Origin: a virus
Length of the DNA: 64,000 bases
IMG/VR virus record: IMGVR_UViG_3300009523_000001
Coordinates: 32,001 to 96,000 of that record
Reading direction: 5' to 3' (one strand)
The notes under the pieces were generated by a model. That model did no database searches. It worked only from the letters and a program-made list of their open reading frames with translations, and was not told the DNA's origin. The position numbers and the translations under genes were made by a program. Shown here piece after piece: positions 1 through 59,347 of the stretch (position 1 is the stretch's first letter; every line of letters begins with the position of its first letter).

Positions 1-798
1 CGGGGTGAAGTAGATGTCGGCCTTGTCCGGCACGCTGTCGACCATTCGGCCGCCGGTGAGGTCGGCTTTGGCCGGTGCGCCGTTGACCGTGAACCGGATG
101 CCGGGCAAGTTGCACTTCTGGAGGAACCCGAGCGCAACGGGCGCGTCGGTCAGCTTGTCCGGCGGCATCACGACTTCGAGCCGGGTTCCTGTTCGCGCGG
201 GCCCGCGCACGACCGTGTAGTCGATTCCGGCCCCCTCCACGACCGTGTCGCGGCTGTGGACCTTCCAGGAGATCCACGGCAGGAGCAGCAGCTCCTTGGC
301 CTTGCCGAACCCACCCGCGGCGCCGCTCGGTCCGGTCTTGGTGGTGGCGCCGAGCACGAGGAACTTCGTGAGGATGGTCTCCTCGTCCATCCCCTTGCCG
401 TCGTCCTCGCAGGAGACGAGCATTGTGCCGTCGTCCTGCTTGATGGCGCCGAGCGCCACATTCTTTCCGCCGGCGTCGACCGCGTTCTGGACGGCTTCCC
501 GCCACCACTTGAGCGGCCAATCGTTGTAGTCCTTGAGCGCGGTGATGAAGAACTCGGGACCGATGGTGATGATCCGACGCTCGGACTGCTCGTGCAGCAC
601 GCGCCGCTCAGGCTCGGTCGTCACCTCGACGGTGACCGTGCGCCCGTGGTCGTCGTAGACCTCGCCGCGGAAGAGGGCGTAGCCACCCTCCACGATCGCC
701 ATCATCGGGAAGTACGCCTCGCTGCCCGAGTGAACGACGTAGAGTCCCGGCAGCGCGTCCAGCGCGTCCTGAGCGGTCTCGAGGAGGGTGGCCTTCAT
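1..798 (-). CDS. GHKL (HATPase_c; Hsp90/MutL/MORC-like) ATPase, runs off the left edge
   Basis: Not in the ORF track (no stop in window). ATG 798 overlaps the upstream stop (ATGA). Manual translation gives REAVQNAVDA (N-box), EDDGKGM (G1), TTK..GGFGKA (G2) and GTRLEV. Confidence 0.88.
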   Translation of the reverse strand, partial: MKATLLETAQDALDALPGLYVVHSGSEAYFPMMAIVEGGYALFRGEVYDDHGRTVTVEVTTEPERRVLHEQSERRIITIGPEFFITALKDYNDWPLKWWREAVQNAVDAGGKNVALGAIKQDDGTMLVSCEDDGKGMDEETILTKFLVLGATTKTGPSGAAGGFGKAKELLLLPWISWKVHSRDTVVEGAGIDYTVVRGPARTGTRLEVVMPPDKLTDAPVALGFLQKCNLPGIRFTVNGAPAKADLTGGRMVDSVPDKADIYFTP

Positions 799-1736
799 CG
801 CGGCCGATGCCGTGGACGCGACACCCGCGCCCGCGACTGCGCCACCCTGTAGTAGCTGGGGGAAGCCTCGCTCATCCTGGACGCGAATCGGACGTACCCG
901 CGCGCGCGGTCGGCCTCCCTTTTCGCCTCGCTGTAGTCGGTGAAGGGTCCGGCGACGGTGCGGCCCTTGGGGTCAACCGCAATGTAGTCGCGGACGACGG
1001 GGCGGCGGTGTTCGGCGACGGCTTCCACCGGCGCGATCCGGTACCCCTCGTACTGGAGAGCGTGGTCGACGCTGAAGCTGTGGTTTCTGTGCATCCAGGC
1101 CCAGATCGCGTTCTCGGTGCCCCGCAAGACTTCCTTGCCGTCGCGGGTGAGCACGTACTGGCCGATGGGTGACCGCGGGTAGGCTCCGCTCGGTGACTTG
1201 CGCGCGTGGTGGCGTCTCGCTTCGTGCGCGAGTTCGCTCTTCGGCGTGCCGCGCACCTCGTCGAGGTTCTCCAGGATCAGGTCGGCCAGTCCCTGCCGGA
1301 CGTTCGGACTCTTCAGCTCCTCGTCGAAGGCGCCGAAGAAGGCGTCGCTGACCTCTTCGTAGGTGATGCCGTAGTGGTCGCGGACCCAGTCGGCGCTCCC
1401 GCTGCCGAACACGCCCTTCGCCCCGCTGAGCTCGAGAACGGTGCTCGCATCCATGTCGCGCTTCGTGTCCCACTCGAGCTGCTGGAGCATGTTCCGGGCG
1501 ACCTTGCGCGCGTCGGCGGGCGACTCGAGTGGGATGACGCTGTTGGGGTCGCGCTGGCGCATCCGCTCGGCCTCGACCATCTGCTCCCACACCCAGTCGC
1601 GGAAATAGTCGCCGTTCAACTGCTCCTGGGCGTAGTCGGTGCCGGCCTTGGAGGCGTCGACCAGAATCTGTTCACCCTCTTGCTTGGGGGTGGGCTCGCG
1701 GGCGGCGCGGCGCTTGGCTTTCGGTTTGCGGGTCAT
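795..1736 (-). CDS. Hypothetical modular protein with Arg-rich leader and E-ARR linkers
   Basis: Coupled at both ends; KRRAARE, LAHEARR, VAEHRR. Confidence 0.75.
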   Translation of the reverse strand: MTRKPKAKRRAAREPTPKQEGEQILVDASKAGTDYAQEQLNGDYFRDWVWEQMVEAERMRQRDPNSVIPLESPADARKVARNMLQQLEWDTKRDMDASTVLELSGAKGVFGSGSADWVRDHYGITYEEVSDAFFGAFDEELKSPNVRQGLADLILENLDEVRGTPKSELAHEARRHHARKSPSGAYPRSPIGQYVLTRDGKEVLRGTENAIWAWMHRNHSFSVDHALQYEGYRIAPVEAVAEHRRPVVRDYIAVDPKGRTVAGPFTDYSEAKREADRARGYVRFASRMSEASPSYYRVAQSRARVSRPRHRPR

Positions 1737-3394
1737 CGGCGGCTCCGTATGCGTTCGCGGGTTGTGTGCGTGAAGTTCGGTGGGACCGTCTTGACGATCG
1801 CCGCCAGGTACTCGGAGAGGTGCCGCGCGACCACCTCGGGCGATCCGGTTCGTGCGCGAAATGGAACGGTTCGGCGAAAGACGTTGTTGCTCTGGTCGAC
1901 CTTGACCTTCGCAACGGGAACGGTCGGGTCGTACGCGAAGCCTCGGATGTGGAACGACGCGCGGTTGTTCTCGGCCTCGGCGCCCCCGCCTGCGTCCCCC
2001 ACGCCGGGCGGCAGGTTGATGAAGTTCACGTAGACGCTGCCGCCGCCCCGCTCGCCGGCGAGGCTCGGATCGAAGCGAACGCGTGCCTGCCGATCGAAGC
2101 GCTGCAGCTTCGACGAAAGAAGCTCGATGAAGGCGTCGGCGGACATGGGTTCGAGGCCGATGTGGCGGGCCTCGGCCACTGCAGGCAGTTTCCTCATGCC
2201 TGGCAGCTTCCTGACGAAGTGCTTGCTTCCACGCGAATGTTCGTACTCGTTGGGTCGAGGCGCACGACCCGATTGGTCGATCTCGATCGAACGCAGATCG
2301 AATGCAGCGCCGCCCAGTTCGTCCTCGAGACGACGCTTTGCTTGTCGCTCAGAGGTGGCCCAGATCCACCCGTCGATGGTGCCGTGCGTGGTTGTGAACG
2401 AGACTCGGTAGGGTTGCTCTCGCCGCGCCTCATCCACCTCGCCGCTCTCATCCTCCTGCCAGCTCGCCGCGTACCCGTCCACTGTTTCCCAGACCCACTG
2501 GATGTCCTTGACCATCTCCGGGAGATCGGAGGTGGTCGGGTAGGTGAAGTGTCCGATGTTCTCGTAGCGGGCGGTCTCCGACAGCCCCTCGTCCCCAAAG
2601 AAGTCGACGGCGACCGAGGCATCGTCGAAGAGGGAGACGACGACAACGACCTTCTGGCTGTACTCGGGACTGTGCGTCGTGAACTGCGCCGCCTCGTTGT
2701 GCTCGCTCCAGCGGAAGCCGCCGGGGATGTCCTTCGGCGTCGAGCCGTTCAATTGCTGCGACAGTTCGTTGGCCAGTTGCAGCGATCCGCCGATGCCCGG
2801 CCCTTCCGGCTCGCGGCGGCCGCGTGGGCGCGCCTCACCGACCGTGCGGCCGCTGCGAGCAGCGTCCTTCGCATCGGCCGCGGTGGGGTACCGACCAAGC
2901 TTCCTCGTCTGCACACCGGTCGTCGGGTTGACCGCCCACAGGATCCAGTCGCCGCCTGCAGACGGGTCGACGAGGAAGTGGCTGACCCCGTCGACCGTAC
3001 CGACGAAACTATCGCGGTGGTGATGCCACTCGAGATCACTCGCGGCTCCAGGTATCTTTGGCGGTGCGCGGCGCCGGCCCGCCTCGCTCGCTCGCCCTCC
3101 GACCCGCCGCGTGTGCGACCCGATCGGCTCGGCGCCGGCGGGCAGCCGGGTCACGACGGCGCGGTCGCCTGTGGCTGGAAAGTGCCAATACCCTCGTTCT
3201 TGCCACGGGCTCGCCGACTCGTACCGCCCGTCGGTGCGCGGGAAGAAGAGCGTCATCTGCCGGCCGGCGACGAGGATGTGGCTGGCGCCGTCGACCGTCT
3301 TGGCGTGCTCGATCAATTCGGGGAGCGTGGTGAAGTCGGCGACGCGGTGGTGGGGGGAGCGCAGGGGGCGGCGAGAGGGGCGGCGTCGTGTCAT
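1733..3394 (-). CDS. Hypothetical multidomain protein with domains separated by E-ARR linkers
   Basis: 553 aa, ATGA overlaps; ASEAGRRR, VGEARPR, VDEARR, VAEARH. Confidence 0.78.
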   Translation of the reverse strand: MTRRRPSRRPLRSPHHRVADFTTLPELIEHAKTVDGASHILVAGRQMTLFFPRTDGRYESASPWQERGYWHFPATGDRAVVTRLPAGAEPIGSHTRRVGGRASEAGRRRAPPKIPGAASDLEWHHHRDSFVGTVDGVSHFLVDPSAGGDWILWAVNPTTGVQTRKLGRYPTAADAKDAARSGRTVGEARPRGRREPEGPGIGGSLQLANELSQQLNGSTPKDIPGGFRWSEHNEAAQFTTHSPEYSQKVVVVVSLFDDASVAVDFFGDEGLSETARYENIGHFTYPTTSDLPEMVKDIQWVWETVDGYAASWQEDESGEVDEARREQPYRVSFTTTHGTIDGWIWATSERQAKRRLEDELGGAAFDLRSIEIDQSGRAPRPNEYEHSRGSKHFVRKLPGMRKLPAVAEARHIGLEPMSADAFIELLSSKLQRFDRQARVRFDPSLAGERGGGSVYVNFINLPPGVGDAGGGAEAENNRASFHIRGFAYDPTVPVAKVKVDQSNNVFRRTVPFRARTGSPEVVARHLSEYLAAIVKTVPPNFTHTTRERIRSRR

Positions 3395-3897
3395 ACCCAG
3401 CTCCGCACGATCTCGTACGTGACCTTGATGACCCTGCCCTTGTCCTTGACCGAGAGCAGGTCGACGTTGCCGCGCTCGTTCACGTAGAAGACGTTGGGGA
3501 AGTAGTTCGAGTCGTGCATCGCCTGCACGCCGACCTTGAGCGCCTTGTCGAAGTCGTCGAAGGTGCCGAGACTCTTCCCGCTGAAGGTTACCGAATAGCC
3601 GCCTCGCCGCGCACCGATGGTCAGTCCATCATCTATTTCCGACTGGTCGAGCTCCTCGTCCTCTTGTTCCTCGTCATCTTCTTCAGGCTCTTCGTCCTCG
3701 TCGTTTTCTCGTACGGTGCGTCGGCCGCCGGGCTCCCCGTAGACCGCCGACGAGAATCGCTCGACATCGAAGGAAGGATTGTCCTCTCGGAACAGGCGCG
3801 CGAACTCCTCGGCGAGCCGCTGCCGCTCGCGCGGATCGCGGACTCCGTTCAGGATGCGCGCGATCTCGATGTAGTGCCGCTTGGTGAAGGCCGCCAT
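3391..3897 (-). CDS. Hypothetical phage-type protein (TKRHY..DNPSFDVERF domain, acidic linker)
   Basis: RBS AAGGAG, TGATG overlap; N-terminal domain resembles a small phage protein family (recalled, unverified). Confidence 0.75.
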   Translation of the reverse strand: MAAFTKRHYIEIARILNGVRDPRERQRLAEEFARLFREDNPSFDVERFSSAVYGEPGGRRTVRENDEDEEPEEDDEEQEDEELDQSEIDDGLTIGARRGGYSVTFSGKSLGTFDDFDKALKVGVQAMHDSNYFPNVFYVNERGNVDLLSVKDKGRVIKVTYEIVRSWV

Positions 3898-4985
3898 CAA
3901 CGTCTCCTTTTCTGTCCTGGACGAAGCGCTCCGTGGAACCCACGAGGCATCGGCAACGGCACCCGCTGTCCCCTCGCCCCGGCCTGCGCCATGCTGTCGA
4001 GCGTTCGCTGCGCGACGGCGGCGTCGTGACCGGACCAGTACACGCTCGCCCGGGTGCCGTCCGGCTTCGTCACAACGTAGGAGTGGCCGACGAGCTCGAC
4101 CTTCGAGCCGCGCGGGATGTCACGCCAGTTGATGTTGGTGGTCGGGAGGTCGGCTTCGCCGGCGTAGCGGGGTCGAGGGGGTGAACGTACCTCGCCGGCG
4201 CGCGGAGAGGCACTTCCTGCTGGATAGTCGTGCTCGAGGTAATAGCGGAGACCCGCTACGATGGTACGGAGGTCGCGCGCGTCTTTTTTCGTCCAGCCGT
4301 GCTCCCCGCGTTCGGCCTTCGGGATATAGCTCTCGGCTTGCGCGATGGCACCCTCGACCCACTTGGGATCGGGGTACACGTGGCCGCCGTAGTAGTAGCT
4401 GCCGACCGGGCCGATGCCGCCATCGCCGTCCCCGCCCCAGGGGGACATCATCTCTCCGAGACGCTTGCGATCAATAAACCGCGCCTTGATGGATGCAGAC
4501 CGTGCTTCCAGTCTCGAGCGGATCATCGGCCGGCGAGCCTCGCTGACAGCGGGAGCCGGCTTGCGGTGGCTGCGGTACCAGTCGGGCGGGGGACCGTGGA
4601 TGAAAACCTCCCCGTCGGCGTCGGGGTCGCCGAGGTACAGGTCGAACTCGCCGTACGACTGCGCGGCCTCCTGGAGGGGATCTTGGAACTCCTCGTCGAT
4701 CGTGTCTTCGTCGAAGAAGCCGCTTCCTGCGCCACCGCGACTCAGCCAGAAGTCGTGTCCGGCTCGCGCATCATCGATCCCGCTCTCGGAGAGCAGCTCG
4801 GCGTATCGCTCCTGGAAGTCGGCGCAGTCCTCGATCATCAGCTCCATCGTCTCGGGCGCGATGTCGTCGATGCCGTAGTTCGCGTCGAGCGGTTCACCGC
4901 CCTGCTCGTCGCTGTTGTCTGTCGTGCTCCAGAGTGCGGCTTCGATGTACGCGCGGGTGAAGCTGTCGAGTCGTTGCGGGGGCAT
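3897..4985 (-). CDS. Hypothetical phage-type protein (AGHDFWL domain)
   Basis: AYIEAALWS...AGHDFWLSRGGAGSGFFD; VSEARRP linker; TGATG coupling. Confidence 0.78.
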   Translation of the reverse strand: MPPQRLDSFTRAYIEAALWSTTDNSDEQGGEPLDANYGIDDIAPETMELMIEDCADFQERYAELLSESGIDDARAGHDFWLSRGGAGSGFFDEDTIDEEFQDPLQEAAQSYGEFDLYLGDPDADGEVFIHGPPPDWYRSHRKPAPAVSEARRPMIRSRLEARSASIKARFIDRKRLGEMMSPWGGDGDGGIGPVGSYYYGGHVYPDPKWVEGAIAQAESYIPKAERGEHGWTKKDARDLRTIVAGLRYYLEHDYPAGSASPRAGEVRSPPRPRYAGEADLPTTNINWRDIPRGSKVELVGHSYVVTKPDGTRASVYWSGHDAAVAQRTLDSMAQAGARGQRVPLPMPRGFHGALRPGQKRRR

Positions 4986-5437
4986 CAGCGTCTCCTCGGT
5001 GGCGGTCGGCGCGCGGATCGTCCGCGCGGTATCGGTCGTCTGGGCGGTTCCTCGCGCACGGTCGGCCGCCTGGGTGGTGGGACGTGCGGCGCTGACCGCA
5101 CGGGGGGCCGCCGGGAAGGGGCTTCCCGCGCCATTGGGTTCCGTCGTCGCGCCTCCTCGACCTCCTCCTCCTCGTCGCCGATGAGCCCCTGGATAAGGTC
5201 TTCGACGTCGCGAGTGTCCTGGATGGCGTTCAGGGTGTCCCCTAACAGTTCGGCTTCTTTCCAGCCGAGGTTGAACGTCTCGTAGCCCATGTCTGCCGCT
5301 TGGTCGCCGCCAGGTAGGCTCGCCAGGATGCGCCAGAACAGAGTCGGGAAGTCCTCCGGACCGTGATCGTAATTGGGAAGCCAGGACTGCAGCTCGCCGA
5401 TGAGGTCGGCGATGGGTTTGCGCGGTTTGCTCGGCAT
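4985..5437 (-). CDS. Hypothetical protein, acidic core and Arg/Pro-rich tail
   Basis: ATG 5437 overlaps upstream TAA (TAATG); VEEARRRNP. Confidence 0.72.
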   Translation of the reverse strand: MPSKPRKPIADLIGELQSWLPNYDHGPEDFPTLFWRILASLPGGDQAADMGYETFNLGWKEAELLGDTLNAIQDTRDVEDLIQGLIGDEEEEVEEARRRNPMAREAPSRRPPVRSAPHVPPPRRPTVREEPPRRPIPRGRSARRPPPRRR

Positions 5438-6501
5438 TATCTTCTCCTCGTGCGCGTTCGACGTCGCGCTTCCTCGGTCCTGGATTCCTCTTTGCGTTTC
5501 GCCCAGACGTACGTCATGCCCGACGAGCTGCCCGGGATCTCTTCTTGCCATCCGTCGACGGACTTGGCGGCTTCCTCTACCTGCTCGCGCGACCGGTCGA
5601 GCTCCTTGGCGACGGCGTCTACGACGTGCTCGGCGTACGCGTAGCCCTCGGTCGACGGCACGCGGCCGCCCGACTTGTCGAGGTACTCGTAGCCGTTCTT
5701 GTCGAGCCAGTCGGTGAGCTCGTCGGTGCCAACTTCGCTCCAGAGGTCGTTGTGCTTGTACCCGAACACCTCCGCCCAGTGTGGGCCGACGATCAGGTCT
5801 CCGTTGACCGCCACCGCGTCGCCGAAATTCGCCTCGACGACGATCGACTCGGGATCGAACCCTGCGTCCTCCAGGTCACCCGCGAGCTGGTCGCCGGGCG
5901 TGCCCCAGCCCTCCGCCGCACTCTGGTCGACCATTCGCTCGATCGTTTCCTCGAGCGCCACCTTGATCTCGCCGTAGCCGAGCACGTCGTCGCGGAACGC
6001 CTCGTCCTCGTCCGCGAGGTACTCCGACCCCGAGATTTTGCCGCCCCACCACTTCACCTTCTCGGGGATGTTGATGTCACCAGACCATCCAGAGGGCCCA
6101 GGGTCACCGCGTCCGTAGTCGAGCAGTGCCTCCGCGATAGCGATGGCTCGATGCTCTGGTTCCATCTCTTCGAGCGCGTCTCTGGCTAGACCGACGGCCT
6201 GCATGGCGCTCTGGACTTCCTCGCTGCTCGGGTCGAGGTCGCTGAGATCGAAGTACCCCTCCTTCGTCCAGAATGGGAAACCCACATCGGCGGCTTCCCT
6301 GTCGCCGACGTTGTTGCGGACTGGGTCGATCCGAATTAGCTCAATGGCGTTCCCGTCGCCGGTGGCGATCGTACCGCCTGACGCTCCAGGGTCCATGTCC
6401 CCACCGATCTGCTCCCAGTCCATCGTCGGGATGATGATCTCGAGCGGTTCGTCGCCCGGCTCGATGCCGGGGAGGTGTTGCTGCCTTCGTCGGGAAGCCA
6501 T
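5437..6501 (-). CDS. Hypothetical acidic protein
   Basis: ATG 6501 (TGATG overlap); MASRRRQ leader; ends TEEARRRTRTRRR. Confidence 0.75.
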   Translation of the reverse strand: MASRRRQQHLPGIEPGDEPLEIIIPTMDWEQIGGDMDPGASGGTIATGDGNAIELIRIDPVRNNVGDREAADVGFPFWTKEGYFDLSDLDPSSEEVQSAMQAVGLARDALEEMEPEHRAIAIAEALLDYGRGDPGPSGWSGDINIPEKVKWWGGKISGSEYLADEDEAFRDDVLGYGEIKVALEETIERMVDQSAAEGWGTPGDQLAGDLEDAGFDPESIVVEANFGDAVAVNGDLIVGPHWAEVFGYKHNDLWSEVGTDELTDWLDKNGYEYLDKSGGRVPSTEGYAYAEHVVDAVAKELDRSREQVEEAAKSVDGWQEEIPGSSSGMTYVWAKRKEESRTEEARRRTRTRRR

Positions 6502-6920
6502 CAGTCCGACCCTCCCATGTCTTCCACCCCGAAGGCTTCCGCGATCTCCTCGGTGGTCGGCACCGAGACGCGTGCCACGCCGACGTTGACGTGAGCGGCC
6601 CAGAGCCGCTTGCGACCGGTCTTCCACGCCTCCACCTCGCGGTCGGTGGGCGGCACGTTGTCGTCGTCGACCATGAACTCGCAGGTGAGTCGGCCGTCGA
6701 ACGCGGCCCAGTTGTCTCGTTCCTGGGGGAGTCCGTAGGTGCTGGAGAGTTTCTTGATGAGCGCGGCCGGGCTAGTCGCCTTGACGAAGATACTCTCGGA
6801 CAGGACGGTCTGCGAGTTGTCCTGCTCACCGTGTTCGTAGCTGTCCTCGACCGATTCCCACTCGATGTAGGTCGCCGCCCAGTTATTGTCGGTCTCTCGC
6901 ATCCGTCTTCGAGTAGCCAT
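6501..6920 (-). CDS. Hypothetical protein
   Basis: ATG 6920 (TAATG overlap); MATRRRMRE leader. Confidence 0.72.
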   Translation of the reverse strand: MATRRRMRETDNNWAATYIEWESVEDSYEHGEQDNSQTVLSESIFVKATSPAALIKKLSSTYGLPQERDNWAAFDGRLTCEFMVDDDNVPPTDREVEAWKTGRKRLWAAHVNVGVARVSVPTTEEIAEAFGVEDMGGSD

Positions 6921-7621
6921 TAGTTCACCCTCCAGTAAACCAGCCCGCCATCGGTCGTGTACGACTGGCCGTCGTACGACGACAGGAAGTGCGACGCTCC
7001 GTCGGTGTCGACGGCCTCTTCGGCGGCGGCGTCGATGTCGATGCCGGCGATCCGGATGGCCTCTTTGACGGCGTTCTCCTTGCCGTAAATGTTCTCGAGA
7101 TACTCCATCGGGTCTTGGAGTTCGCTCTCGGTCAGCCGCTCGGCCAGTTCTTCGATCTGAGAATCGTCGGGCGATTCGAGCTCTCCGTCCTCGTTCTCCT
7201 CTGGCATGTCGAGCCCCTGCGCTTCCCACTCGCGCCAGAAGTCGCGGTCGCGCTCGTCGCGCAACCTCTCTTCGTTGCTGTCTCGCGTGTCGCCCCATAG
7301 ATCGCGCTTCAATCGGTCCGTGTCGATGTGCGACTCGATGAAGTCCTTGTTGAAGATTTCCGGCTGATCGTCGAGATCTTGCTTGACGATCTCGAGCGCA
7401 AGCTCCCGCTCATCGTCTTCGCTGGCGACGACCTTCCATTCCTTGCCGTGCTTGCCGCCGCGGATGGTGATCTCGTACGCCTGGACGCTGAAGCCGGATC
7501 GATCGTCTTGGATCTTCAGCTCGTCCGGGTCGATGTCGAGTTCCTTCGCCATCTCGGCGAGTACGGCGTCCTCGTCGCCGAAGTCGACCGTGTCGGATTC
7601 GTGGATAAATCGGCGGACCAT
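6920..7621 (-). CDS. Hypothetical highly acidic protein
   Basis: MVRRFIHE leader, then D/E-rich; ends HFLSSYDG...YWRVN. Confidence 0.78.
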   Translation of the reverse strand: MVRRFIHESDTVDFGDEDAVLAEMAKELDIDPDELKIQDDRSGFSVQAYEITIRGGKHGKEWKVVASEDDERELALEIVKQDLDDQPEIFNKDFIESHIDTDRLKRDLWGDTRDSNEERLRDERDRDFWREWEAQGLDMPEENEDGELESPDDSQIEELAERLTESELQDPMEYLENIYGKENAVKEAIRIAGIDIDAAAEEAVDTDGASHFLSSYDGQSYTTDGGLVYWRVN

Positions 7622-7989
7622 CACTCATCTCCTTCGAGGTCGGCAAACTCCTCTTCGATTTCAGCCCACGCTTCTTCGGCTTCGGCTAGGTCGTCGTACC
7701 ACTCGACCTCGACAATACCGTCCGATCGCTCGAAGAGGATGACCGCCAGACTCTCGTCGAGGAGTTCTTCCTCCTCCTTGGTGAGCCGGTCTTTGGCCTC
7801 GGCCGCATCCTCGAGAATGCGCTCGACCGTGTCTCGATCGAGCGCCATGAAGCCGTACCAGCCGCCCCCCTCGGGGTAGCTCTCTTCGTGGTCGGCGCCG
7901 AAGTCGATCGTCGCACCATGCACGTAGCTGTCGATGATCGTGCTGTACTTGCCGGGGCCGTACGATCGGATTCCTTCCGCTTTCGCCAT
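7621..7989 (-). CDS. Hypothetical acidic protein (GPGKY motif)
   Basis: Coupled within the operon; plausible composition. Confidence 0.72.
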   Translation of the reverse strand: MAKAEGIRSYGPGKYSTIIDSYVHGATIDFGADHEESYPEGGGWYGFMALDRDTVERILEDAAEAKDRLTKEEEELLDESLAVILFERSDGIVEVEWYDDLAEAEEAWAEIEEEFADLEGDE

Positions 7990-7990
7990 C

Positions 7991-8395
7991 TCACGCCTCC
8001 CACTTGATCCACTTGGGATCGAATTTCGTCGGGAGCTGCGCGGTCGACACCCCGATCGAGATTAGGATTTTGCGCAGGTCGTTGTATTCTTCGGCCGCGA
8101 CCTCCTCGATGTACACCTTGCCGTCGCTTTCTACGCCCCAGAGACCGCCGCTCGTGAGCGTCTGGAGGACACCCTGGATGTCGACGTCGGTCTCCGCGCG
8201 CACACCGACGAATGAGAAGTCGCCGCGCTCGTACTGTTTCCGGCGGTCCTCGTCTTGGTCCTTGTACTCGGGGTCACCGCTGTCGAAGAACGATGTGTCC
8301 GGGTCCTCGTCGTGCATCACGCGCACACGAATCTCCTGCACCGTCGGTGCGGACTTCTTGCGCGTGGCTTCGACGACTCGCTTGCGCGACGTCAT
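7991..8395 (-). CDS. Hypothetical phage-type protein, first gene of the operon
   Basis: RBS AAGGAGG upstream; MTSRKRVVEA leader; SGGLWGVESD motif. Confidence 0.78.
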   Translation of the reverse strand: MTSRKRVVEATRKKSAPTVQEIRVRVMHDEDPDTSFFDSGDPEYKDQDEDRRKQYERGDFSFVGVRAETDVDIQGVLQTLTSGGLWGVESDGKVYIEEVAAEEYNDLRKILISIGVSTAQLPTKFDPKWIKWEA

Positions 8396-8476
8396 TCGGG
8401 AACCTCCTTATCTTGTCGAGCCCATCCTCTCACGGCACCGAGGTGCGTGCAAGGGCGACAAAAAACCAAGGCCGCC

Positions 8477-46156: not shown

Positions 46157-46195
46157 AGTTCGTCTGCACCCATTTCCCACGGAGCCAAACTTTCC

Positions 46196-50538: not shown

Positions 50539-51734
50539 TCCGGGCATTTCGTTACCCACTTCGTCCAACGAAAGCGCAGGAAGCGACGCTTGAAGCATGG
50601 CTTACGGCGAGTTGCACACTTTACAACGCTGCTCTGCAAGAACGACGAGATGCGTGGAGCAAACAGCATGTGCGAATCAGTCGCTTCGATCAGCAGAAGG
50701 AACTAACTGAACTTCGGGCCACGGATCCAGAATGGGAGATGATCCCACTCTTGGTTCAGCGCAGTGCACTACGACGTCTTGACCGAGCGTTTCTGGCGTT
50801 CTTCCGACACGTAAAGCGCGGTGAAAAAAAAGGATACCCGCGCTTTCGGTCGCGCGACCGTTATGACTCATTTACTCTGCCTCCGCTTTTCGGGGTGCGC
50901 GCTGAAGGCGACCATGTACGCTTACCAAAACTAGGCCTGGTGAAGTTTCACCAGTACCGCGAGATGCGTGGCCGGATGAAGCAGGTCACGGTGGGTCGCA
51001 GCAGTACGCGCGGCTGGTACGTATCGTTCGTCTGCGACCTCGGCGAAGCGCCAACGAAAATCGCGGTCCGATCGGCTATCGGCATTGATGTCGGCCTGGA
51101 AGCGTTCGCTACGCTCTCTAACGGTGAGCGTGTCGAAAATCCGCGCTTCTTCCGCGCGTCGGAGAAGACGCTAGCGCGGCGCCAGCAGTTGCTCGCTCGC
51201 AAGCAACGTGGATCGAACAGTCGACGTCAAGCTCGTACACTGGTTGCTCGTACCTACGAGCACATTCGCAATCAGCGTCTGGATTTTGCCCGCAAGTTCG
51301 CGTGTGCGATCTTCAACCGGTTCGACCTCGTAGCGCACGAGAATCTAGAAATCGCCCGCATGATGCGCGGACATTTATCAAAATCCATTCGTGACGCCGC
51401 GTGGGGCGTCGCCATCAAAGCACTCAACTGCAAGGCGGAGGGTGCCGGCAAGTGGGTGGTGGCGACGGATCCGCGGCGTAGCAGTATCGACTGCTCAGGC
51501 TGCGGTGAACCAGTCCCGAAGGACTTGTCGCAACGTGAGCACCGATGCCCGCAATGCGGACTCATTCTCCATCGAGATGAGAACGCTGCGCGGAACGTTT
51601 TGGCGCGCGGCTTGCGCGCGGGGTCGTTGACCGAAGCCGTTACAACGGTAGGGCCGGAGTTTATGGCGTCGTTGACCGAAGCCGTTACAACGGTAGGGCC
51701 GGAGTTTATGGCCACTCTTGGAGCTTGCCAATGA
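50535..51734 (+). mobile_element. tnpB: IS200/IS605-family TnpB RNA-guided nuclease, no tnpA
   Basis: AFRYPLRPT, YNAALQER, GYPRFR, GIDVG, HENL, CSGC..CPQC, RDENAA: RuvC triad intact. Confidence 0.95.
51623..51712 (+). repeat. Perfect 45-bp tandem duplication at the tnpB 3' end
   Basis: gtcgttgaccgaagccgttacaacggtagggccggagtttatggc x2, each with a CCGTT-ac-AACGG inverted repeat. Confidence 0.95.
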
Positions 51735-52405
51735 TCATCATCGACAAGCCCGTAGAAGGTGTGAAGACGGACGTACGTTCGCACCCAGCCGGTCGTGATG
51801 GGTCGCTTCTCTCACTCAAGGAGGTTGCCGAGCGCGCGTGGAAGAGTCGTATGTCTCCGCGCCTGCGCGCGTGGACAACGCAGAAACTCGCCGAGGTGGG
51901 CGTATCGACGGGGTCGCGCCGGCAGAAGGGGCAAGCAGTTCTCGACGCGTTCCGCAAGAAGGTGCCGTATGTTGCTGACCCAGTTCTTGGCGAGTTCATG
52001 GAAACTCCGGAACAGACGCTCTGCTTGGACGAGGGAGGTCTTTGCTTCATCGGCACGGACTGCGACGGTGCAAGCATCTCGCTCGCCGCCGCGATGATGT
52101 CGATCGGCATCCCCGCGATGATCATCGGCTCGTCGCACAAGCACCCGCACGACGTGCCGACGCACGTCTTCATGGCCTTCCAGGACGAGCAGGACGACTG
52201 GGTCCGCATGGACGGCACTACGAAGCATCCGGTCGGTCGCGTCGCGCCGCACAAGCGCGAGTGGTGGTTCGAGCCGGGCGCGGAAGCGAAGAACCGCGGC
52301 GAAGGAGACTTCGTCGGGATGTCGGGCGGCAGCGAGGTCGGTGTCAGCGGAAGCGTCCGTGGGCTGGCGAGCGTGCTCGATCTGCTCTACCCGTCGATCC
52401 GGTAA
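51731..52405 (+). CDS. Transglutaminase-like (papain-fold) cysteine enzyme
   Basis: YVADP..E..P..TL; DCDG, HVF, WVRMDGT give a C-H-D triad. Confidence 0.85.
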   Translation: MIIIDKPVEGVKTDVRSHPAGRDGSLLSLKEVAERAWKSRMSPRLRAWTTQKLAEVGVSTGSRRQKGQAVLDAFRKKVPYVADPVLGEFMETPEQTLCLDEGGLCFIGTDCDGASISLAAAMMSIGIPAMIIGSSHKHPHDVPTHVFMAFQDEQDDWVRMDGTTKHPVGRVAPHKREWWFEPGAEAKNRGEGDFVGMSGGSEVGVSGSVRGLASVLDLLYPSIR

Positions 52406-52827: not shown

Positions 52828-52856
52828 TTGACGCTGCAAGAGCGCATTGTGAATCT
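52828..52856 (+). promoter_or_regulatory. Shared structural-gene promoter, copy 3
   Basis: TTGACG-ctgcaagagcgcattgt-GAATCT (17-nt spacer). Confidence 0.65.
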
Positions 52857-52873
52857 TGAAAAACGTTGAAGAC

Positions 52874-55800
52874 ATGGGCGTGTACCACTCCCGTCTCGCC
52901 GAGCTCTCCGCCGCGCACGAACGCGGTCAACGGCTTGGCGCAGGACGTCGACCTTCCCGGCCTCCCTATCGGCAATCGCTCCGCCCGGCGCCGCCCGGCC
53001 GCCGTGAGGTCCGCATCGGCACGGTCATCCCAAGCACGTACGTTCCGCCGCCCTACTCTCCCCCTCCCCCTCCTCCTCCGGATCCGGACTCGTTCGTTGA
53101 AGCCAAGCGCAAGGCCATGCAGGCGCAGTCGCTGCTTTTCGATCGCAGCGCCGGTTGGACCGTCGAGAAAGCGAAGCAGTGGGCCAAAAGTCACGGCTAC
53201 AAATCCGGCAAGGTGGACGTTACCGACCGGTACGTTCGCCTGCGGCAGCAAGACCCGAAGGGGTTCGCAGTCAAACGAACGGTTCCGTTCGGCAAGGGCA
53301 TTCGCGCAGTAGTCGCTCGTGAGGAGACCATGAAAAAGAAGACGAAGACGACCCGTCGTCCTGCTCGCAAGTCCGCGGCCAAGCCCAAGGCGGCCCATCG
53401 AGCCTCTCCGAAGCGCCGAACCGCGCCGAAGCGCCGAGCGGCGCCGAAGTCCAAAACGAGCGTCGTCACCGCGCGCCGGCGTCCGCGCCATGCGCGAGAA
53501 GTGAGACGAACCGCGACCGAGTCGCGGCGCCGTCCGCGCCGCATGCGGGAGACTCCCGTGGTTGCCGAGGCGCGCCGCCGTCCGAAGCACCGCAAGCCCA
53601 CCCACCGCAAGCCCACCCATCGCAAATCGACCCACCGCAAGCGGCCGTCGAGCTACGTGATGGCGAAACGTCGTCCGCACCACCACCGCAAGGTGTCGGC
53701 GTGGCGTGGCGACAGCGCAGGCCACAGCAAGGCTGCGAAGAAGGGGTGGCGAACGCGCAAGGGCGGCAAGACGACCAGGAAGGCCGCCGAGTCGCGGCGT
53801 CGCCCGCGTCGGCACGCTCGCGAGACGACGACCGTTCAGGCCCGTCGGCGCCCGCGTCGTCGTGTCCACGAGCCGATGACCGTGCAGGCCCGTCGCCGTC
53901 CGAAGCATCGGCGCGCTCGTGAGACGAAAGTCGTCCAGGCCCGTCGGCGCCCGCGCAAGTACACCCGAGAGACGACGACCGTTCAGGCGCGTCGGCGTCC
54001 GCGTCGTCATGCTCGCGAGACGAAGGTCGTCCAGGCCCGTCGCCGTCCGAAGCATCGGCGCGCCCGCGAGACGAAAGTCGTTCGATCCTACCGCGCGCAC
54101 AAGGTCCGCGCGCCGAGCTTCGGCAGTATGGCCCGCACGGCGGGCAACATGGCCCTCGAAGTGGGGACCGCCGCCGCCGCCTTCCTGGCCGCGGACGCCA
54201 TCGATCGGTTCCTCGCGGGCTACGATCCATCGGCCGCGAACAAGCCGGCGAACAAGTTCACTTCGGACGGGGTCGGTACGCTAGCCAATGCGCTCAACGT
54301 CGCGTCGGCGCCCGACCTGTGGCGCTACGGCAGCCTAGGAGTCCTGACCTTCGGACCGCTCATCGGCTCGCTCTTCATCAAGAAGGCTGCAATTCGATCG
54401 TCGGTCGAGGGGATGGGGGTCGGAGCCGGAATCAAGTTCGCCGCGACGCTCTGGTCGAGCGTGCTGATGCCGCTGCTCATCGGCAAGGACACGAGCACAC
54501 CGGCGCTGCAGAAGAGCTGGATCGCGCGCCTGTACCCTGCCGAGGTCTCGGCGGCCCTCAACATGAAGAGCGGAACCGCTGCTGTCTCGAGCGGCGGCGC
54601 CGCCAGCAAGGCCGGCACGCTCTCGGACGGATCCGAGCAAACCGGCGTCGGAAAGGACGCCGGCCCATTCGCGCTCGCCGACCGCTTCGGCCGCCACCGC
54701 GAGTGGGTCACGCCCTCTTCGTGGACGCCGCCCGCCATCCCTGGCGTTCCGGGGTACAACGATCCGGGTCCGACGGAGATGATTGTCGACGACGACGATC
54801 AACCCGCTCCCCCCGTTCAGTCGGCATGGCCGCCCCGCTGGGGTCATTGGCACCGCTGGGGCCTGCGCGGCGTCGGCGACGCGGTGCAGGACATGGCGCA
54901 CACCATCGCGGCGAAGACCGGCGTGCACCCGGCGCACGCCGTCAACGCGGCGATGCACGCGGTGGCCGAACCGCACGACCTCACGCAGGCGTTGCAGCGC
55001 GCGCTGCCGCACCTGCGTCGCGAGCTCCTCATCGAGTGCGCGCGGCACGTGCATCCGCACGTGGTCCGAATGCACGCGCACGCCAGGTATCCGCGCGAGC
55101 ACGAAGAGTGGACCGGCGCGCGGGCAGCCGAAGGGTTGCCGGCGCCCGAACACGACGCGCCCGAGAGCGAGTGGCGCGAGTGGCATGGCAAGCGGGCGTC
55201 CGCCGGATTGCCGTACGCTCCCCCACCGCCCGATCTGCCGGCGTCGACGCCCGCGCACTTGCGCGAGCGCCACGAATGGCACCCGAATTACGAACGAGAG
55301 ATCGCCTACGACCGGTACCCGACCGTTCAGCAGGTGATGGGGATCGGCGCCGGGGGGCCCGCAACGGGCGGCAATCCAGGGCAGCCTGGACTCGGCGAAG
55401 TGTTTTCGAACGCCGTGCAGGCTGCAGGAGCTTCGATCCCGGGCATACCGCTCGAGAACGCCGTCACCACGACCGCGTACGCAGCGGCCGAACCGTTCAA
55501 CTGCACGCGGGCGATCGAACGCGCGATGCCGCTCATCCGGAGTGAGCTCGCACGCTACTGCGCCGAGAACATGAGTCCGTACATCCAGCAACTGCACGCG
55601 CAGACGGGGGTTCCGGTGACCACCGCAGCGGTGCCCACTCCGCCCGTACCGGCACCACCTCTGTCCGTCATCGAGTTCGTGCCGTCTCCACCGCCCCCGA
55701 GCTGGACACGCGGTGAAGCGGAATGGCACACGCAAGAACGCCAAGACTGGGATCGCACACACGGCAAAGCCACGCCGGCCGTGGAGGCCGCCGCCACGCA

Positions 55801-56242
55801 CGCCGCAAAAGAGGCGGCTGCTCCGCATGCGGACGCCAAGAAGCCTGCCGTGGCCGCTGCCGTCCAGGCTGCAGCAACCGGAGCGGCGACCGCCGCATCC
55901 GCCGCTCCGCCCGGCACGCCCACTCCGGTCGTGCATCAGATCGCCAAGGAAGGGGCGCAAGCCGCCGCGGACGCACACGGTCCCGTGGCTGACCACCCTG
56001 CCGTTCAAGCGGCCGTCGTGGCAGCCGCACCGGCGGCGGCGGCGGCCCACGCCGCCGCACCGCACGCAGGCACCTCGGGCGTCGGGAACCCACCCAGGAA
56101 CCTCCCCGTCGGCCCCCCCAAGCTGCCGCATCCGGGACCGCAACCGCTGCAGTCGGAGTGCGGTTGCCTGGACGACAGCCCGTACCTCGGCTTCATCGGG
56201 GACGAAGTCGAGCAAGACCTGCTCTGGAACGCGGCCGAGTAA
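52874..56242 (+). CDS. Large core-like protein: protamine-like Arg repeats, hydrophobic helices, Ala/Pro/His-rich modules
   Basis: QSLLFD..WT..AKQW..HG..RQQDP domain; repeated RET..VQARRRP units; in-frame internal ATG 53330 with GAGGAG. Confidence 0.8.
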   Translation: MGVYHSRLAELSAAHERGQRLGAGRRPSRPPYRQSLRPAPPGRREVRIGTVIPSTYVPPPYSPPPPPPPDPDSFVEAKRKAMQAQSLLFDRSAGWTVEKAKQWAKSHGYKSGKVDVTDRYVRLRQQDPKGFAVKRTVPFGKGIRAVVAREETMKKKTKTTRRPARKSAAKPKAAHRASPKRRTAPKRRAAPKSKTSVVTARRRPRHAREVRRTATESRRRPRRMRETPVVAEARRRPKHRKPTHRKPTHRKSTHRKRPSSYVMAKRRPHHHRKVSAWRGDSAGHSKAAKKGWRTRKGGKTTRKAAESRRRPRRHARETTTVQARRRPRRRVHEPMTVQARRRPKHRRARETKVVQARRRPRKYTRETTTVQARRRPRRHARETKVVQARRRPKHRRARETKVVRSYRAHKVRAPSFGSMARTAGNMALEVGTAAAAFLAADAIDRFLAGYDPSAANKPANKFTSDGVGTLANALNVASAPDLWRYGSLGVLTFGPLIGSLFIKKAAIRSSVEGMGVGAGIKFAATLWSSVLMPLLIGKDTSTPALQKSWIARLYPAEVSAALNMKSGTAAVSSGGAASKAGTLSDGSEQTGVGKDAGPFALADRFGRHREWVTPSSWTPPAIPGVPGYNDPGPTEMIVDDDDQPAPPVQSAWPPRWGHWHRWGLRGVGDAVQDMAHTIAAKTGVHPAHAVNAAMHAVAEPHDLTQALQRALPHLRRELLIECARHVHPHVVRMHAHARYPREHEEWTGARAAEGLPAPEHDAPESEWREWHGKRASAGLPYAPPPPDLPASTPAHLRERHEWHPNYEREIAYDRYPTVQQVMGIGAGGPATGGNPGQPGLGEVFSNAVQAAGASIPGIPLENAVTTTAYAAAEPFNCTRAIERAMPLIRSELARYCAENMSPYIQQLHAQTGVPVTTAAVPTPPVPAPPLSVIEFVPSPPPPSWTRGEAEWHTQERQDWDRTHGKATPAVEAAATHAAKEAAAPHADAKKPAVAAAVQAAATGAATAASAAPPGTPTPVVHQIAKEGAQAAADAHGPVADHPAVQAAVVAAAPAAAAAHAAAPHAGTSGVGNPPRNLPVGPPKLPHPGPQPLQSECGCLDDSPYLGFIGDEVEQDLLWNAAE

Positions 56243-56337: not shown

Positions 56338-57654
56338 ATGGCAAGGAACCTGCTGCAGAAGAAGTCGATCAAGTACGGCGGCGAGAGCCGCGAGAAGGTG
56401 ATGCGCGTGCCGTTCGGCCTGGGCGCTCCGCCCGGCGACGAGAAGGCCGCAGAGAAGTGCCTGCGATGCGGGTTCGGCAACGTGCCCGTCGTCGAGGAGG
56501 TGGTCTGGACGATCCCCTTGCCGCTGACCGCGGAGCAGGCGCAGACGACGTTCGGCGACACGGTCAACCCGCTCAGCGGGTCGTCCGCGGTGCCCGGCGT
56601 CGCGAGCATCGACAGCACGTTCCTCATCAACGGTATCCTGCAGACGGATATCCTCGCCCAGGGCATCGGCGTGCACGTCTTCTGCGAGCCGATGTCGTTC
56701 TCCACGATCGGCAACGCGTTCATCGCCCCGACCCAGCAGCTCGCCACCGGCTCCCCTCCGAGCCCGGACGTCTGGACGGCCAACGACTACGCAAACGGCG
56801 CCTTCGGGTCCTACGTGACTGGTCCCGATCAGGTGACCCCCGCGGTTTTCGAGTTCGGCGCGGCAACCTGGCGCGCAGGCTGGAACTTCATCAACGCCTA
56901 CCAGTTCCAGTGGAAGACGTCGCAGCGTGAGCTCGTGCTCAACGAGCTTGCGGCCGACATCTCGTACTTCGGATCGTTCGCTGACGCCGAAGCGAGCGGC
57001 ACGAGCGAGCTACCGGTCATCGACTACGTCGCGCTCGTCAACGCGCAGTACCGCGCGCAGGGTTCCGACACGATCTTCCTGCCGGTCAACTTCCGGCGGG
57101 TCGGCAGCTTCACCCCGTCGGGAGCATCGACCGGCGTCAACATCGGCATCTTCCACCCGACGCGCGACTTCGACCTCGCGCCGGTCACCTGGGGAGGCCT
57201 GCGGTGGCAGGGGTACGGCTGCCGCGGACAGATGTACCGACCGGTCGAGAGCCCGTGCTTTCTCGAGCGCGGAATCCCCATCGGGATGATCTTCATCGCG
57301 CAGGACGCCGTGCACCAGGCGCAGATGATCGAGGCGCTCACGATCGACAACGAGCCGTTCGGGATCAACGTCCTTCCGGACGTCAACCTGGCCGCCGTCA
57401 CCTCTGGAGGCAGCACCAGCCTCAGCTCGGCCGCCGTGCTCGCTCTCCTGCCTACGCTGGCCCTGCCGATGATGGAGCAGACACTCGACGGGACGGCGCT
57501 TTACGCGTCGCAGGTCGTCAACGACAGCCGCCAAATCTTCAAGGGCGGCATCCTCAAGCTCGGCATCAAGATCAAGGGCTGGGAGATGCCTGGCGGATGG
57601 AAGTCGTACTGCTCGGAAAAGTACCCGAGCATGATGCGAGCCCACGCGGCCTGA
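56338..57654 (+). CDS. Candidate major capsid protein (beta-rich, possibly jelly-roll)
   Basis: ORF is solid; function inferred only from size (438 aa), beta-like pattern, position after the core protein and a downstream hairpin. Confidence 0.45.
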   Translation: MARNLLQKKSIKYGGESREKVMRVPFGLGAPPGDEKAAEKCLRCGFGNVPVVEEVVWTIPLPLTAEQAQTTFGDTVNPLSGSSAVPGVASIDSTFLINGILQTDILAQGIGVHVFCEPMSFSTIGNAFIAPTQQLATGSPPSPDVWTANDYANGAFGSYVTGPDQVTPAVFEFGAATWRAGWNFINAYQFQWKTSQRELVLNELAADISYFGSFADAEASGTSELPVIDYVALVNAQYRAQGSDTIFLPVNFRRVGSFTPSGASTGVNIGIFHPTRDFDLAPVTWGGLRWQGYGCRGQMYRPVESPCFLERGIPIGMIFIAQDAVHQAQMIEALTIDNEPFGINVLPDVNLAAVTSGGSTSLSSAAVLALLPTLALPMMEQTLDGTALYASQVVNDSRQIFKGGILKLGIKIKGWEMPGGWKSYCSEKYPSMMRAHAA

Positions 57655-58360: not shown

Positions 58361-59347
58361 ATGCGCGACGACCAGGCGGCGGAGCTAACCGATCTGCAGG
58401 CCGAACCCATCGGGGTCGGTCAGCACGGGACAGACCCCAAAGCCATCGTGCCGCCGTCGAGGGGGCGGCGCGGCGACTTGGAGGTGAGGCTACTCGACCT
58501 GCAGCGCGACCCGAACGGGGTCGGCTATGGAGTCCGCACGCGCCTCTGGTCCGGTCGCCACGAGATCGTCCCCGCGACGATCGATCCGTTTGTCTCGCTG
58601 CTCGGCAGCGACCCGTGGGGATCGCCCGTCGGTACCGGCGTCCTCGTCCCCTCCACGCCAACGGCCACGCTCGTTCCGACCGGAGCACCCCCGTCGCAGT
58701 ACCGGTACCTCTTCTTGCTCGCTCGCGAGCAGTTCAATTCCGGCGAGCAGGGGGTGCGACTGACAGGCATCCGGATGTACGCGGAGCTCACCGCAACCGT
58801 TTCGGATGTCGGGACCTTCCGTAAGGAGATCATGAGTCCACTCTGGCATCCGCCCGACGGGAACATCTCCTGGCACATCGTGATGATCCCGAAGACCTGG
58901 ATGCTGACTCGCAACGTCCAGAACGCGGACAGTCTGAAGTTCCGCGACGCCTACGGGCCGTGCATGCTCTACGAAACGATCGCAGGCCCGCAGTTCGCGC
59001 CGACCGCGTACAAGCCCCCGAACGCCGGCCGGCCGTGGGGCAAGCCGCTTGGGAGCGTGAGCCTCGGCAACATGCACGACATGCGGTACCGCTGGCGTAC
59101 CGGCTACCTCGAACAGATGCTCGACATCCCGGTGCCGCTGCCGTGCGACATCGCGTTCTTCGCGAGCGTCCGGCAGAACGACCCGTCGACCAACCCGGCC
59201 GCGAGCGACCTGTCGGCCAATCAGTTTACGGCGCTCGGCACAGGGTCCGAAGACCAGTTTCTGACCGCCTTCAACACGACCGCGCAGTACGGCCGGATTG
59301 CGGGGTCGCTCGTCTTCGACGAGAATCTGGGAGAGGACGTGCCCTGA
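58361..59347 (+). CDS. Putative structural protein
   Basis: Operon context; 328 aa. Confidence 0.6.
   Translation: MRDDQAAELTDLQAEPIGVGQHGTDPKAIVPPSRGRRGDLEVRLLDLQRDPNGVGYGVRTRLWSGRHEIVPATIDPFVSLLGSDPWGSPVGTGVLVPSTPTATLVPTGAPPSQYRYLFLLAREQFNSGEQGVRLTGIRMYAELTATVSDVGTFRKEIMSPLWHPPDGNISWHIVMIPKTWMLTRNVQNADSLKFRDAYGPCMLYETIAGPQFAPTAYKPPNAGRPWGKPLGSVSLGNMHDMRYRWRTGYLEQMLDIPVPLPCDIAFFASVRQNDPSTNPAASDLSANQFTALGTGSEDQFLTAFNTTAQYGRIAGSLVFDENLGEDVP

Follow-up and report, generated by a model that had tools for sequence, protein, structure and literature searches.

This work concerns a short peptide motif in the proteins of an uncultivated bacterial virus. The motif was found in a stretch of 64,000 nucleotides (the window; bases 32,001 to 96,000 of the 117,665-base IMG/VR record IMGVR_UViG_3300009523_000001, 65.5% G+C), the first 8395 bases of which hold an operon of eleven open reading frames (ORFs) on the minus strand, with p11 read first and p1 last. 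It consists of an aliphatic residue, any residue and Glu, followed by Ala or Ser and then by Arg, and it is a selected, portable peptide signal that stands at the boundaries of protein modules and near protein termini. The same motif punctuates a polybasic protein that belongs to a conserved gene set elsewhere in the window. It is quite possibly a proteolytic processing site of the Glu-Ala type, a reading that we put forward tentatively; the cleavage, the enzyme that would perform it, the loading of the products into particles and their delivery to the host are steps that we infer.

The operon and its shared motif

The genes of the operon are tightly packed. Nine of the ten junctions are stop/start overlaps of one or four bases, and the remaining one is a gap of a single base. 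No pair among the eleven proteins matched at E ≤ 0.01 when they were compared with each other by BLASTP, so the initial annotation, which had described eleven adjacent, mostly translationally coupled and otherwise unrelated genes, is borne out. It had also called the proteins acidic, which is true of most of them: Asp and Glu make up 12.7–30.3% of their residues and eight of the eleven are negatively charged (net −7 to −42), whereas p2 and p3 are at +5 and p6 is neutral.

Database searches say little about what these proteins are. At E ≤ 0.1 Pfam gave no match for p2 to p9 or for p11 and one sub-threshold match for p10 (DUF2226, E 0.0045); at E ≤ 1 across the operon, that match and a GHKL domain (in p1, discussed below) are all that is found. 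PHROG adds only families without an assigned function, among them phrog_2922 for residues 1–95 of p4 (E 1.3e-6) and phrog_1915 for the N-terminal module of p5 (E 3.3e-19). A search of the ESM Atlas with p7 gave no usable match, and p9 has a homologue in a related locus (L048) that is 52% identical.

What these proteins do share is the motif. The word EARR occurs five times, in five different operon proteins (11 proteins, 3,123 amino acids (aa)), against a mean of 0.18 in within-protein shuffles, none of 2000 of which reached five; in the remaining 138 called proteins (29,253 aa) it is found twice. When four-residue words were counted without prior choice, EARR was again the commonest in the operon, and any word at all reached five copies in 1 of 500 shuffles. 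The pattern [VILMA]-x-E-A-R-[RHP] was observed six times against 0.11 in shuffles, and RR-x-[VILMA]-[RH]-E four times against 0.06 (0/2000 in both cases). The looser RR...E is only weakly enriched (six against 2.17, with 45 of 2000 shuffles reaching that number). Composition or chance as the source of the motif is ruled out by these shuffles together with the unbiased word count, and the enrichment over background is clear. The early description of Arg-rich segments at termini and domain boundaries holds for EARR and for RR-x-[VILMA]-[RH]-E, but it has to be trimmed for the weak RR...E pattern and for the C-terminal arginines of p5, p6 and p7, which are Shine-Dalgarno codons, as will be described.

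At the seven EAR sites of the operon, the Ala and Arg codons vary at synonymous positions, which places the signal in the peptide and not in a DNA repeat. A repeat as the source was rejected on these codon differences and on the output of Tandem Repeats Finder, which reported only two short arrays in bases 1–8395. One extra six-frame match, GEARRRPVR near base 9695 on the plus strand, lies in an ORF with a third-position G+C content (GC3) of 0.54 that is probably not coding.

The motif marks the boundaries of shuffled modules

When metagenome contigs were scanned with aligned close homologues of p1, 80 loci emerged, and 15 of them hold homologues of p2–p11. In these 15 loci the operon modules are reordered, fused differently, duplicated, or found as separate genes. 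In L049, the N-terminal module of p5 is directly followed by the middle module of p2, the two being joined at two motif positions. EARR is the commonest four-residue word in the relatives as well, with 13 copies against 0.54 expected and 0/1000 shuffles (22 non-redundant proteins, 6,920 aa, from seven related operons).

A search with p3, one of the fused proteins, returned 44 homologues that cover between 16 and 96% of it, in varied orders, and 33 of the 44 have at least one EAR. Among the 62 high-scoring segment pairs (HSPs) of the BLASTP comparison, 28 end at residues 320–349, 16 start at 160–219 and six start at 400–419. These breaks fall at motif positions, so that p3 can be divided into five modules, with a copy of the motif at each of the four internal boundaries. 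One module of p3 is inserted between the segments REQPYR and RKLPGM, which adjoin each other in L046. The HSPs between p2 and its relatives likewise break at residues ~162–191 and ~240–247, and phrog_38200 spans residues 193–239. Between the fold of p5 and its motif lies a Pro-rich spacer of ~15 aa; the N-terminal module of this protein exists by itself as a ~140-aa protein in 42 phage records (tblastn), all of which cover only the N-terminal 33–41% of p5. Giant phages of Caulobacter and Brevundimonas encode this module (residues 5–134) in a small gene of its own, with the Caulobacter matches lying inside annotated terminal repeats, and it is also present in ~145–150 kb phages of Serratia, Klebsiella, Erwinia and Acinetobacter.

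Across the relatives the boundary motif reads h-x-E-[A/S]-R-[R/P/G/H/Q] (h, hydrophobic), independent of what comes after it. A module that ends in YAASWQ is continued in 29 distinct copies by [V/L/M/A]-[D/E]-E, with Glu in 28 of 29 and V, L, M or A at the P3 position in all 29; basic residues come next, and the protein then either stops after a basic tail or goes on with one of at least eight unrelated sequences. The motif, in other words, goes with the upstream module. Its best-kept positions are the aliphatic residue, the Glu and the Ala/Ser, while the arginines change to P, G, H, Q or S. Free-standing genes of the same families begin with basic leaders (MTRRRPSRR, MTRKPKAKRR, MASRRR, MATRRR), and relatives of p11 have RRP-x-VVEA at the N-terminal site where p11 has RKRVVEA. 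Taken together, the enrichment, the varied codons and the location at the boundaries of shuffled modules sustain the early proposal of a shared peptide signal.

One related genome (G001) shows a different arrangement. Its p6, p3 and p5 modules (L123–L128; 94178–96112, 58981–60123) lie 85 kb from the p1 homologue and in another order, its first p3 module is fused to a RadC-like protein, and its boundary motif is degenerate (VDERAHEARG, VRERRRP).

The same motif in a conserved core block

A second set of relatives was found by a scan with a 438-aa, beta-rich protein encoded in the right-hand part of the window. At least 30 related viral contigs (5–128 kb) carry what we call the core block, which spans 44620–60345 here. 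Besides the 438-aa protein, two further proteins are present in 30 of 30 loci, a transglutaminase-like (putatively papain-fold) protein in 26, and the polybasic protein in 23 by BLAST (27 by position).

The polybasic region of the last of these holds eight copies of the motif, five of them within a 48-base (16-aa) tandem array; the tandem repeat that had been reported for a core protein is thus confirmed, in an ORF of 1128 aa. Homologues from 27 related contigs have 190 Glu residues in their polybasic regions, 90 of which stand in the context h-x-E-[AST], against a shuffle mean of 15.8 (maximum 26, 200 shuffles). The regions of the six most distant loci are poor in Glu and have a lower share (5/21) in that context. 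All 27 homologues are rich in Arg and Lys, with 59–77 of these per 150 aa. The block also includes a membrane protein in which ASEARR was correctly noted at the outset. The conserved part of this protein ends in a transmembrane helix and a KKK tail, and ASEARR joins it to an extra module of ~55 aa that is missing in the homologues; core-block membrane proteins normally end in basic tails.

From the presence of the motif in the polybasic protein it would follow that whatever reads the motif belongs with the core genes, which are probably morphogenetic, and not with the operon. On its sequence, the transglutaminase-like protein would be the leading candidate for the reader or protease, and a better one than p1. 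Across 21 sequences its residues C113, H147 and D163 hardly vary, and it matches Pfam Transglut_core at E 3.3e-4 (21.4 bits). The gene is present in every locus with enough upstream sequence, so its distribution cannot serve as a test of such a role. Two further possible proteases are encoded outside the window: a second transglutaminase-like protein (L001:15048–15998, plus strand, E 6e-10) and a subtilase-like protein (L004:10243–11496, plus strand, Peptidase_S8, E 4e-6).

A possible processing site and the alternatives

A short, position-specific motif that sits in presumably disordered linkers, moves among unrelated modules and recurs repeatedly where a core protein is of low complexity looks like a polyprotein processing site. 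If so, the operon would be a mosaic of small, mostly acidic modules, made either as separate coupled genes or as fused multi-module proteins, and nearly every module junction would be marked by aliphatic-x-Glu-Ala/Ser-Arg-(Arg/Pro/Gly/His/Gln) followed by a variable basic stretch. An endoprotease would recognize the motif and cut at or beside the Glu-Ala bond. The modules would thereby be set free, the downstream one retaining at its N-terminus a basic leader such as those of the free-standing family genes. The same site would punctuate the polybasic protein encoded beside a possible capsid gene, and the conserved Cys-His-Asp protein of the transglutaminase type, whose gene adjoins that of the polybasic protein, would be its most plausible reader.

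Several observations weigh against such processing. Six-frame searches of the genome with profiles for the HK97-type protease (PF04586) and the HK97 capsid (PF05065) gave no match, while control genomes were recognized (four of them with PF05065, a kind of profile that can miss divergent folds); with the gp21-like, T4-type protease profile (PF03420, Peptidase S77) there was again no match, and the control genomes were silent too. The Transglut_core match is below the Pfam cut-off of 23 bits, and the fold is also used by enzymes that are not proteases. The protease-like domain next door gives no help either: as shown below, the operon's own zincin is dispensable for the motif, so this neighboring protease gene lends no support. 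Where the motif lies 5–12 residues before a stop codon, a cut would yield no more than a short basic tail, and in the polybasic array most copies have Gln in place of Glu (V-Q-A-R-R-R). The excision of spacer peptides between two Glu sites was considered and rejected: a second h-x-E at +4 to +14 follows 11 of 64 distinct motif contexts, compared with 1191 of 3750 random positions (32%) and 69 of 247 positions after other RR. Finally, the relatives share ancestry, and counts made across them are therefore not independent; despite the shared descent, the motif occupies junctions that differ between loci. The packaging or cleavage tag proposed in the initial annotation accordingly survives only in part. 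It is favored by the portability of the boundary signal, by its sharing with the polybasic protein of the core block and by its likeness in shape to the T4 gp21 site; the absence of a gp21-like or HK97-type protease match and the origin of some Arg termini in ribosome-binding sites count against it.

It is also possible, if on the doubtful side, that nothing is cut. The basic stretch could be an Arg-rich leader that binds nucleic acid and is capped by h-x-E-A, so that whole proteins ride on the genome or bind RNA. The similar basic leaders of the free-standing family genes, the net charge of +92 of the polybasic protein with the Arg and Lys content of its 27 homologues, and the basic tails of the core-block membrane proteins would all suit such a tether. 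The pattern of conservation fits it poorly: it is the aliphatic residue, the Glu and the Ala/Ser that are kept best, not the arginines, and half of the Glu residues in the polybasic regions are held in one fixed context, of which charge-driven binding has no need. The exact coincidence of reshuffling with the motif raises yet another thought, namely that the linker is a recombination joint, a cassette boundary inherited with its module and without function as a peptide. The module of p3 inserted between two segments that are contiguous in L046, and the way the motif goes with the upstream module, are what one would expect from such a joint. We consider it unlikely, since identity at the DNA level is limited to about GAGGC, with varying Ala and Arg codons, which is too short for homologous exchange, and since the same peptide follows unrelated modules and occurs within the low-complexity polybasic region.

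The Arg-rich ends of some operon proteins do have a simple origin. The C-terminal RRR of p5, p6 and p7 is encoded by AGG AGA (A/C)G(A/T), located 5–10 bases before the next ATG; these Arg runs arise because the codons form an AGGAGA-type Shine-Dalgarno sequence for the next, overlapping gene. Thus the last RRR codons of p6 hold the ribosome-binding site of p5, and the final AGG AGA AGA of p7 is that of p6. C-termini such as RSRR are common in the families. One could therefore imagine that Arg codons from Shine-Dalgarno/ATGA overlaps persisted as linkers when genes fused. For the motif as a whole this is extremely unlikely: the E-A-R-R core lies at least six codons upstream of such signals, or deep inside proteins, and coupled genes beyond the operon do not end in Arg-rich stretches (of the last six residues, a fraction of 0.10 is Arg, compared with 0.33 for operon genes and 0.089 for uncoupled ones). 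An in-frame ATG follows only two of the seven EAR sites, at 11 and 17 bases, with none near the others, and the motif was on that count also rejected as an internal ribosome-binding site. Coupling accounts for only the last three or four residues of some proteins and is refuted as the source of the internal motif.

p1 as a possible reader

The last gene of the operon encodes p1. Its Pfam match to HATPase_c_3 scores 29.8 bits against a cut-off of 25, and its predicted model has a mean predicted local distance difference test score (pLDDT) of 87.0. Residues 78–342 align with MORC2 at Z 18.7 (root mean square deviation (rmsd) 3.3, 262 residues aligned); the model also aligns with GRP94 at Z 17.8, and Foldseek matches it to TRAP1 at E 1.4e-10. 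By its predicted structure, p1 is a GHKL ATPase of the MORC/Hsp90/MutL class, with a Bergerat ATP-binding fold and the transducer domain that follows it. The C-terminal domain (residues 402–578) resembles a Wss1-like zincin in the model, with Z scores to Wss1 of 7.5 (rmsd 3.5, 123 aligned) and 6.9, both under the advised line of Z 8. H544, E545, H548 and H556, that is, HExxH and a third His, are invariant in 88 sequences, and the third ligand appears to be this His.

Could this zincin cut the linkers, in line with the proposal that polyvalent proteins are autoprocessed by their metallopeptidase domains (PMC5512222)? The invariant HExxH with its third His, the Wss1-like fold, and the position of p1 as the closing gene of the operon both here and in L042–L052 and L068 make the idea attractive. 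It is nevertheless very unlikely. p1 is absent from G006–G010 (0/5, all rated 100% complete), while the same search found it in G001 as a positive control, and four of the five (G006, G007, G008 and G010) have modules of p2, p3 and p5 that are bounded by the motif; the p1 zincin is thus not an obligate reader. In G001 the modules are 85 kb away from p1. Nor does any linker word show enrichment in the regions upstream of 28 p1 homologues that are more remote; EARR is the top four-residue word in only two (L046 and L049) of 30 loci examined upstream of p1 homologues. Among the viral loci matched by the p1 alignment, only 1 of 37 contained an operon module. Homologues of p1 are common in metagenomes, with 293 at E ≤ 0.001, of which the best 120 are listed. 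No match was found among 50,697 phage records, four partial GHKL matches were found among plasmids, and a scan of viral contigs with the single protein for close p1 relatives found none.

Relation to known processing systems

A close precedent for the site is the prohead protease gp21 of T4, whose sites are described as L/I-X-E, with a glutamyl-alanyl bond cut in gp22 (PMC9026906). The internal proteins of T4 are described in the same source as unrelated small proteins with a shared short leader that are packed in the head and ejected. The operon resembles this system in that aliphatic-x-Glu is followed by Ala or Ser, and in that aliphatic-x-Glu occurs within the first 14 residues of four of its eleven proteins. 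It differs from T4 in that no gp21-like protease or HK97 capsid match was found here, and in that the Arg-flanked site is for the most part internal or lies C-terminal to a module. In phiKZ, divergent homologues of the protease were missed by simple searches (PMC9026906). The giant phages phiKZ and SPN3US are described as having ejection proteins that are cut at A/S/G-X-E (AXE in the short form) by gp175/gp245, with several sites in one propeptide and with many head proteins delivered to the cell (PMC10052503, PMC9026906). Nearly all of those cuts remove N-terminal propeptides of single proteins, whereas the motif here separates exchangeable modules; moreover, the genomes here are ~110–125 kb, and the hallmark genes of tailed phages are not matched in Pfam or PHROGs. 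Judged by analogy, the shape of the motif would agree with these precedents in the cut after Glu, the determinant at P3, the Glu-Ala bond and the multiplicity of sites.

The modular architecture recalls the polyvalent proteins (Iyer, Burroughs, Anand, de Souza and Aravind 2017; PMC5512222), in which many unrelated domains are combined in one polypeptide or in adjacent genes in mosaic fashion, and which were predicted to be released by a zincin peptidase associated with them and to be delivered together with the DNA. The unrelated domains in shuffled combinations, such as the five modules of p3, are alike. The modules here, in contrast, have no match to the known effector domains (ArdC-N, methylases, nucleases) in the Pfam results for p2–p9 and p11, and the zincin is a separate gene, fused to a GHKL ATPase and absent from five of the six related genomes searched. 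The word "linker" does not appear in the main text of that paper (PMC5512222). For ArdC of plasmid R388 a small HExxH domain is described, with Spartan-family proteases as the nearest among the solved folds (PMC7213743). The resemblance of the modeled C-terminal domain of p1 to Wss1 is a point of likeness; p1 differs in having no ArdC-N domain, and a His seems to act as third ligand, which is also the case in Spartan.

As a processing and sorting signal, should it prove to be one, the motif would serve as a sequence-only parser that splits the otherwise unreadable ORFs of an uncultivated virus family into modules. It would also flag proteins that share a fate with a component of the core particle, giving a handle for finding the proteins that these viruses process and perhaps carry into cells, and the fast-evolving acidic modules would be candidates for early or injected factors of host takeover and counter-defense. 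The lineage itself deserves attention: at least 30 viral contigs (5–128 kb) have the core block, and those examined are without recognizable capsid, portal, terminase or prohead-protease genes.

A possible capsid protein

The 438-aa protein offers a weak lead to the type of particle. Its model is of good quality (pLDDT 85.6, predicted template modelling score 0.84). The best match in the PDB is P3 of PRD1 (Z 5.8, rmsd 5.5, 163 aligned), followed by SPV1, HCIV-1 and P23-77; these best structural alignments are to jelly-roll capsid proteins of membrane-containing viruses, with scores all below the level that the tool advises trusting. Feature matches in the Atlas point to the same fold with scores of at most 0.87. 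Foldseek gave no match at E ≤ 0.001, and no match was found among the phage records. The protein is, on its model, a possible capsid protein.

One might go further and suppose that these are not ordinary tailed phages. They would have a capsid of the beta-sandwich type and a membrane-anchored polybasic core protein, which a papain-fold enzyme would chop at its reiterated h-x-E-A sites into short Arg-rich peptides; the shuffling acidic modules would have adopted the site and the basic leader as a means of being packaged alongside the DNA, set free and carried into the host. We regard this extended picture as decidedly unlikely in its entirety. The core proteins of adenovirus are matured by cleavage in a similar manner.

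Coordinates and other gene content

The features discussed above are collected in Table 1. Gene calls beyond the operon come from our own codon-score caller and are approximate.

Table 1. Genes of the operon and core block, with the positions of motif copies (window coordinates unless another contig is named).
Feature	Position	Strand	Description
p1	1..798	−	N-terminal 266 aa of a 599-aa protein, remainder outside the window (L002:14000–15799, −); last operon gene
p1 RRVLHE	589–606	−	motif
p2	795..1736	−	313 aa, three modules
p2 AHEARR	1212–1229	−	module boundary
p2 RRAARE	1695–1712	−	N-terminal leader
p2 AVAEHRRP	near residue 245	−	second module boundary
p3	1733..3394	−	553 aa, five modules
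p3 ASEAGR	3074–3091	−	internal boundary
p3 VGEARP	2825–2842	−	internal boundary
p3 VDEARR	2420–2437	−	internal boundary
p3 VAEARH	2162–2179	−	internal boundary
p4	3391..3900	−	169 aa: N-terminal module, RRTVRE, acidic run, C-terminal module
p4 RRTVRE	3706–3723	−	motif
p5	3897..4985	−	362 aa: N-terminal module (residues 5–~134), Pro-rich spacer, VSEARR
p5 VSEARR	4530–4547	−	motif
p6	4985..5437	−	150 aa: one module, VEEARR, Arg/Pro-rich tail
p6 VEEARR	5144–5161	−	motif
p7	5437..6501	−	354 aa, net charge −41
p7 TEEARR	5461–5478	−	six codons from the end
p8	6501..6920	−	~139 aa, N-terminus MATRRRMRE; ATG overlaps p9 stop by one base
p9	6920..7624	−	234 aa, net charge −42
p9 RRFIHE	7598–7615	−	N-terminal
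p10	7621..7989	−	122 aa, net charge −28; without motif
p11	7991..8395	−	134 aa; first operon gene
p11 RKRVVEA	8369–8386	−	N-terminal
Transglutaminase-like protein	51725..52405	+	226 aa, putative papain fold; candidate reader or protease for the motif; core gene directly upstream of the polybasic protein
Polybasic protein	52856..56242	+	1128 aa, net charge +92: small N-terminal domain, polybasic region, hydrophobic region, Ala/Pro-rich tail
Polybasic region	53513–54043	+	eight motif copies
438-aa protein	56338..57654	+	beta-rich core protein; possible capsid protein (weak lead); in 30/30 related loci
Membrane protein	59347..60345	+	332 aa, core block
Membrane protein ASEARR	60160–60177	+	joins conserved part to extra module

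The record is 100% complete by the CheckV estimate and has linear ends. The window has no tRNA genes, megablast of bases 1–8400 against phages and plasmids gave no match, and the clue to the host sought in genomes was a single 1,052-bp contig, which is uninformative. Pfam and PHROG scans of the ~150 called proteins gave replication and recombination genes, toxin-antitoxin pairs, transposases, a lytic transglycosylase, a glycosylation cluster and collagen-like fiber proteins; no match to capsid, portal, terminase or prohead-protease families was found in these scans.

The core block is interrupted by a TnpB-like gene of the IS605 family (50421–51734, plus strand; OrfB_IS605 and Cas12f1-like TNB domains), inserted so that it separates homologues that are adjacent in relatives. 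A perfect 45-base repeat in two copies (51623–51712) lies at its 3' end, and a perfect 27-base repeat in three copies lies upstream (48785–48867).

A large cluster on the minus strand (12741–37429) seems devoted to surface decoration. It encodes two collagen-like fiber proteins of 701 and 1458 aa, a 1587-aa protein with three glycosyltransferase-2 stretches and tetratricopeptide (TPR) repeats, three methyltransferases, an NAD-dependent epimerase and an apiosidase-like hydrolase, and suggests glycosylated fibers. Candidate genes for host manipulation are located at 11700–12720 (−), 43226–43852 (−), 45446–46156 (+) and 20018–20398 (−). The candidates comprise two proteins resembling tyrosine/dual-specificity phosphatases, a Fic/DOC protein, a RadC-like JAB protein (in the core block) and a stand-alone response-regulator receiver domain. 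Outside the window, a HigB-like toxin gene (L002:11896–12222, +) is directly followed by an ORF that matches a PHROG family of transcriptional regulators, and an MNT/HepT nucleotidyltransferase-ribonuclease pair is encoded at L003:3806–4707 (+).

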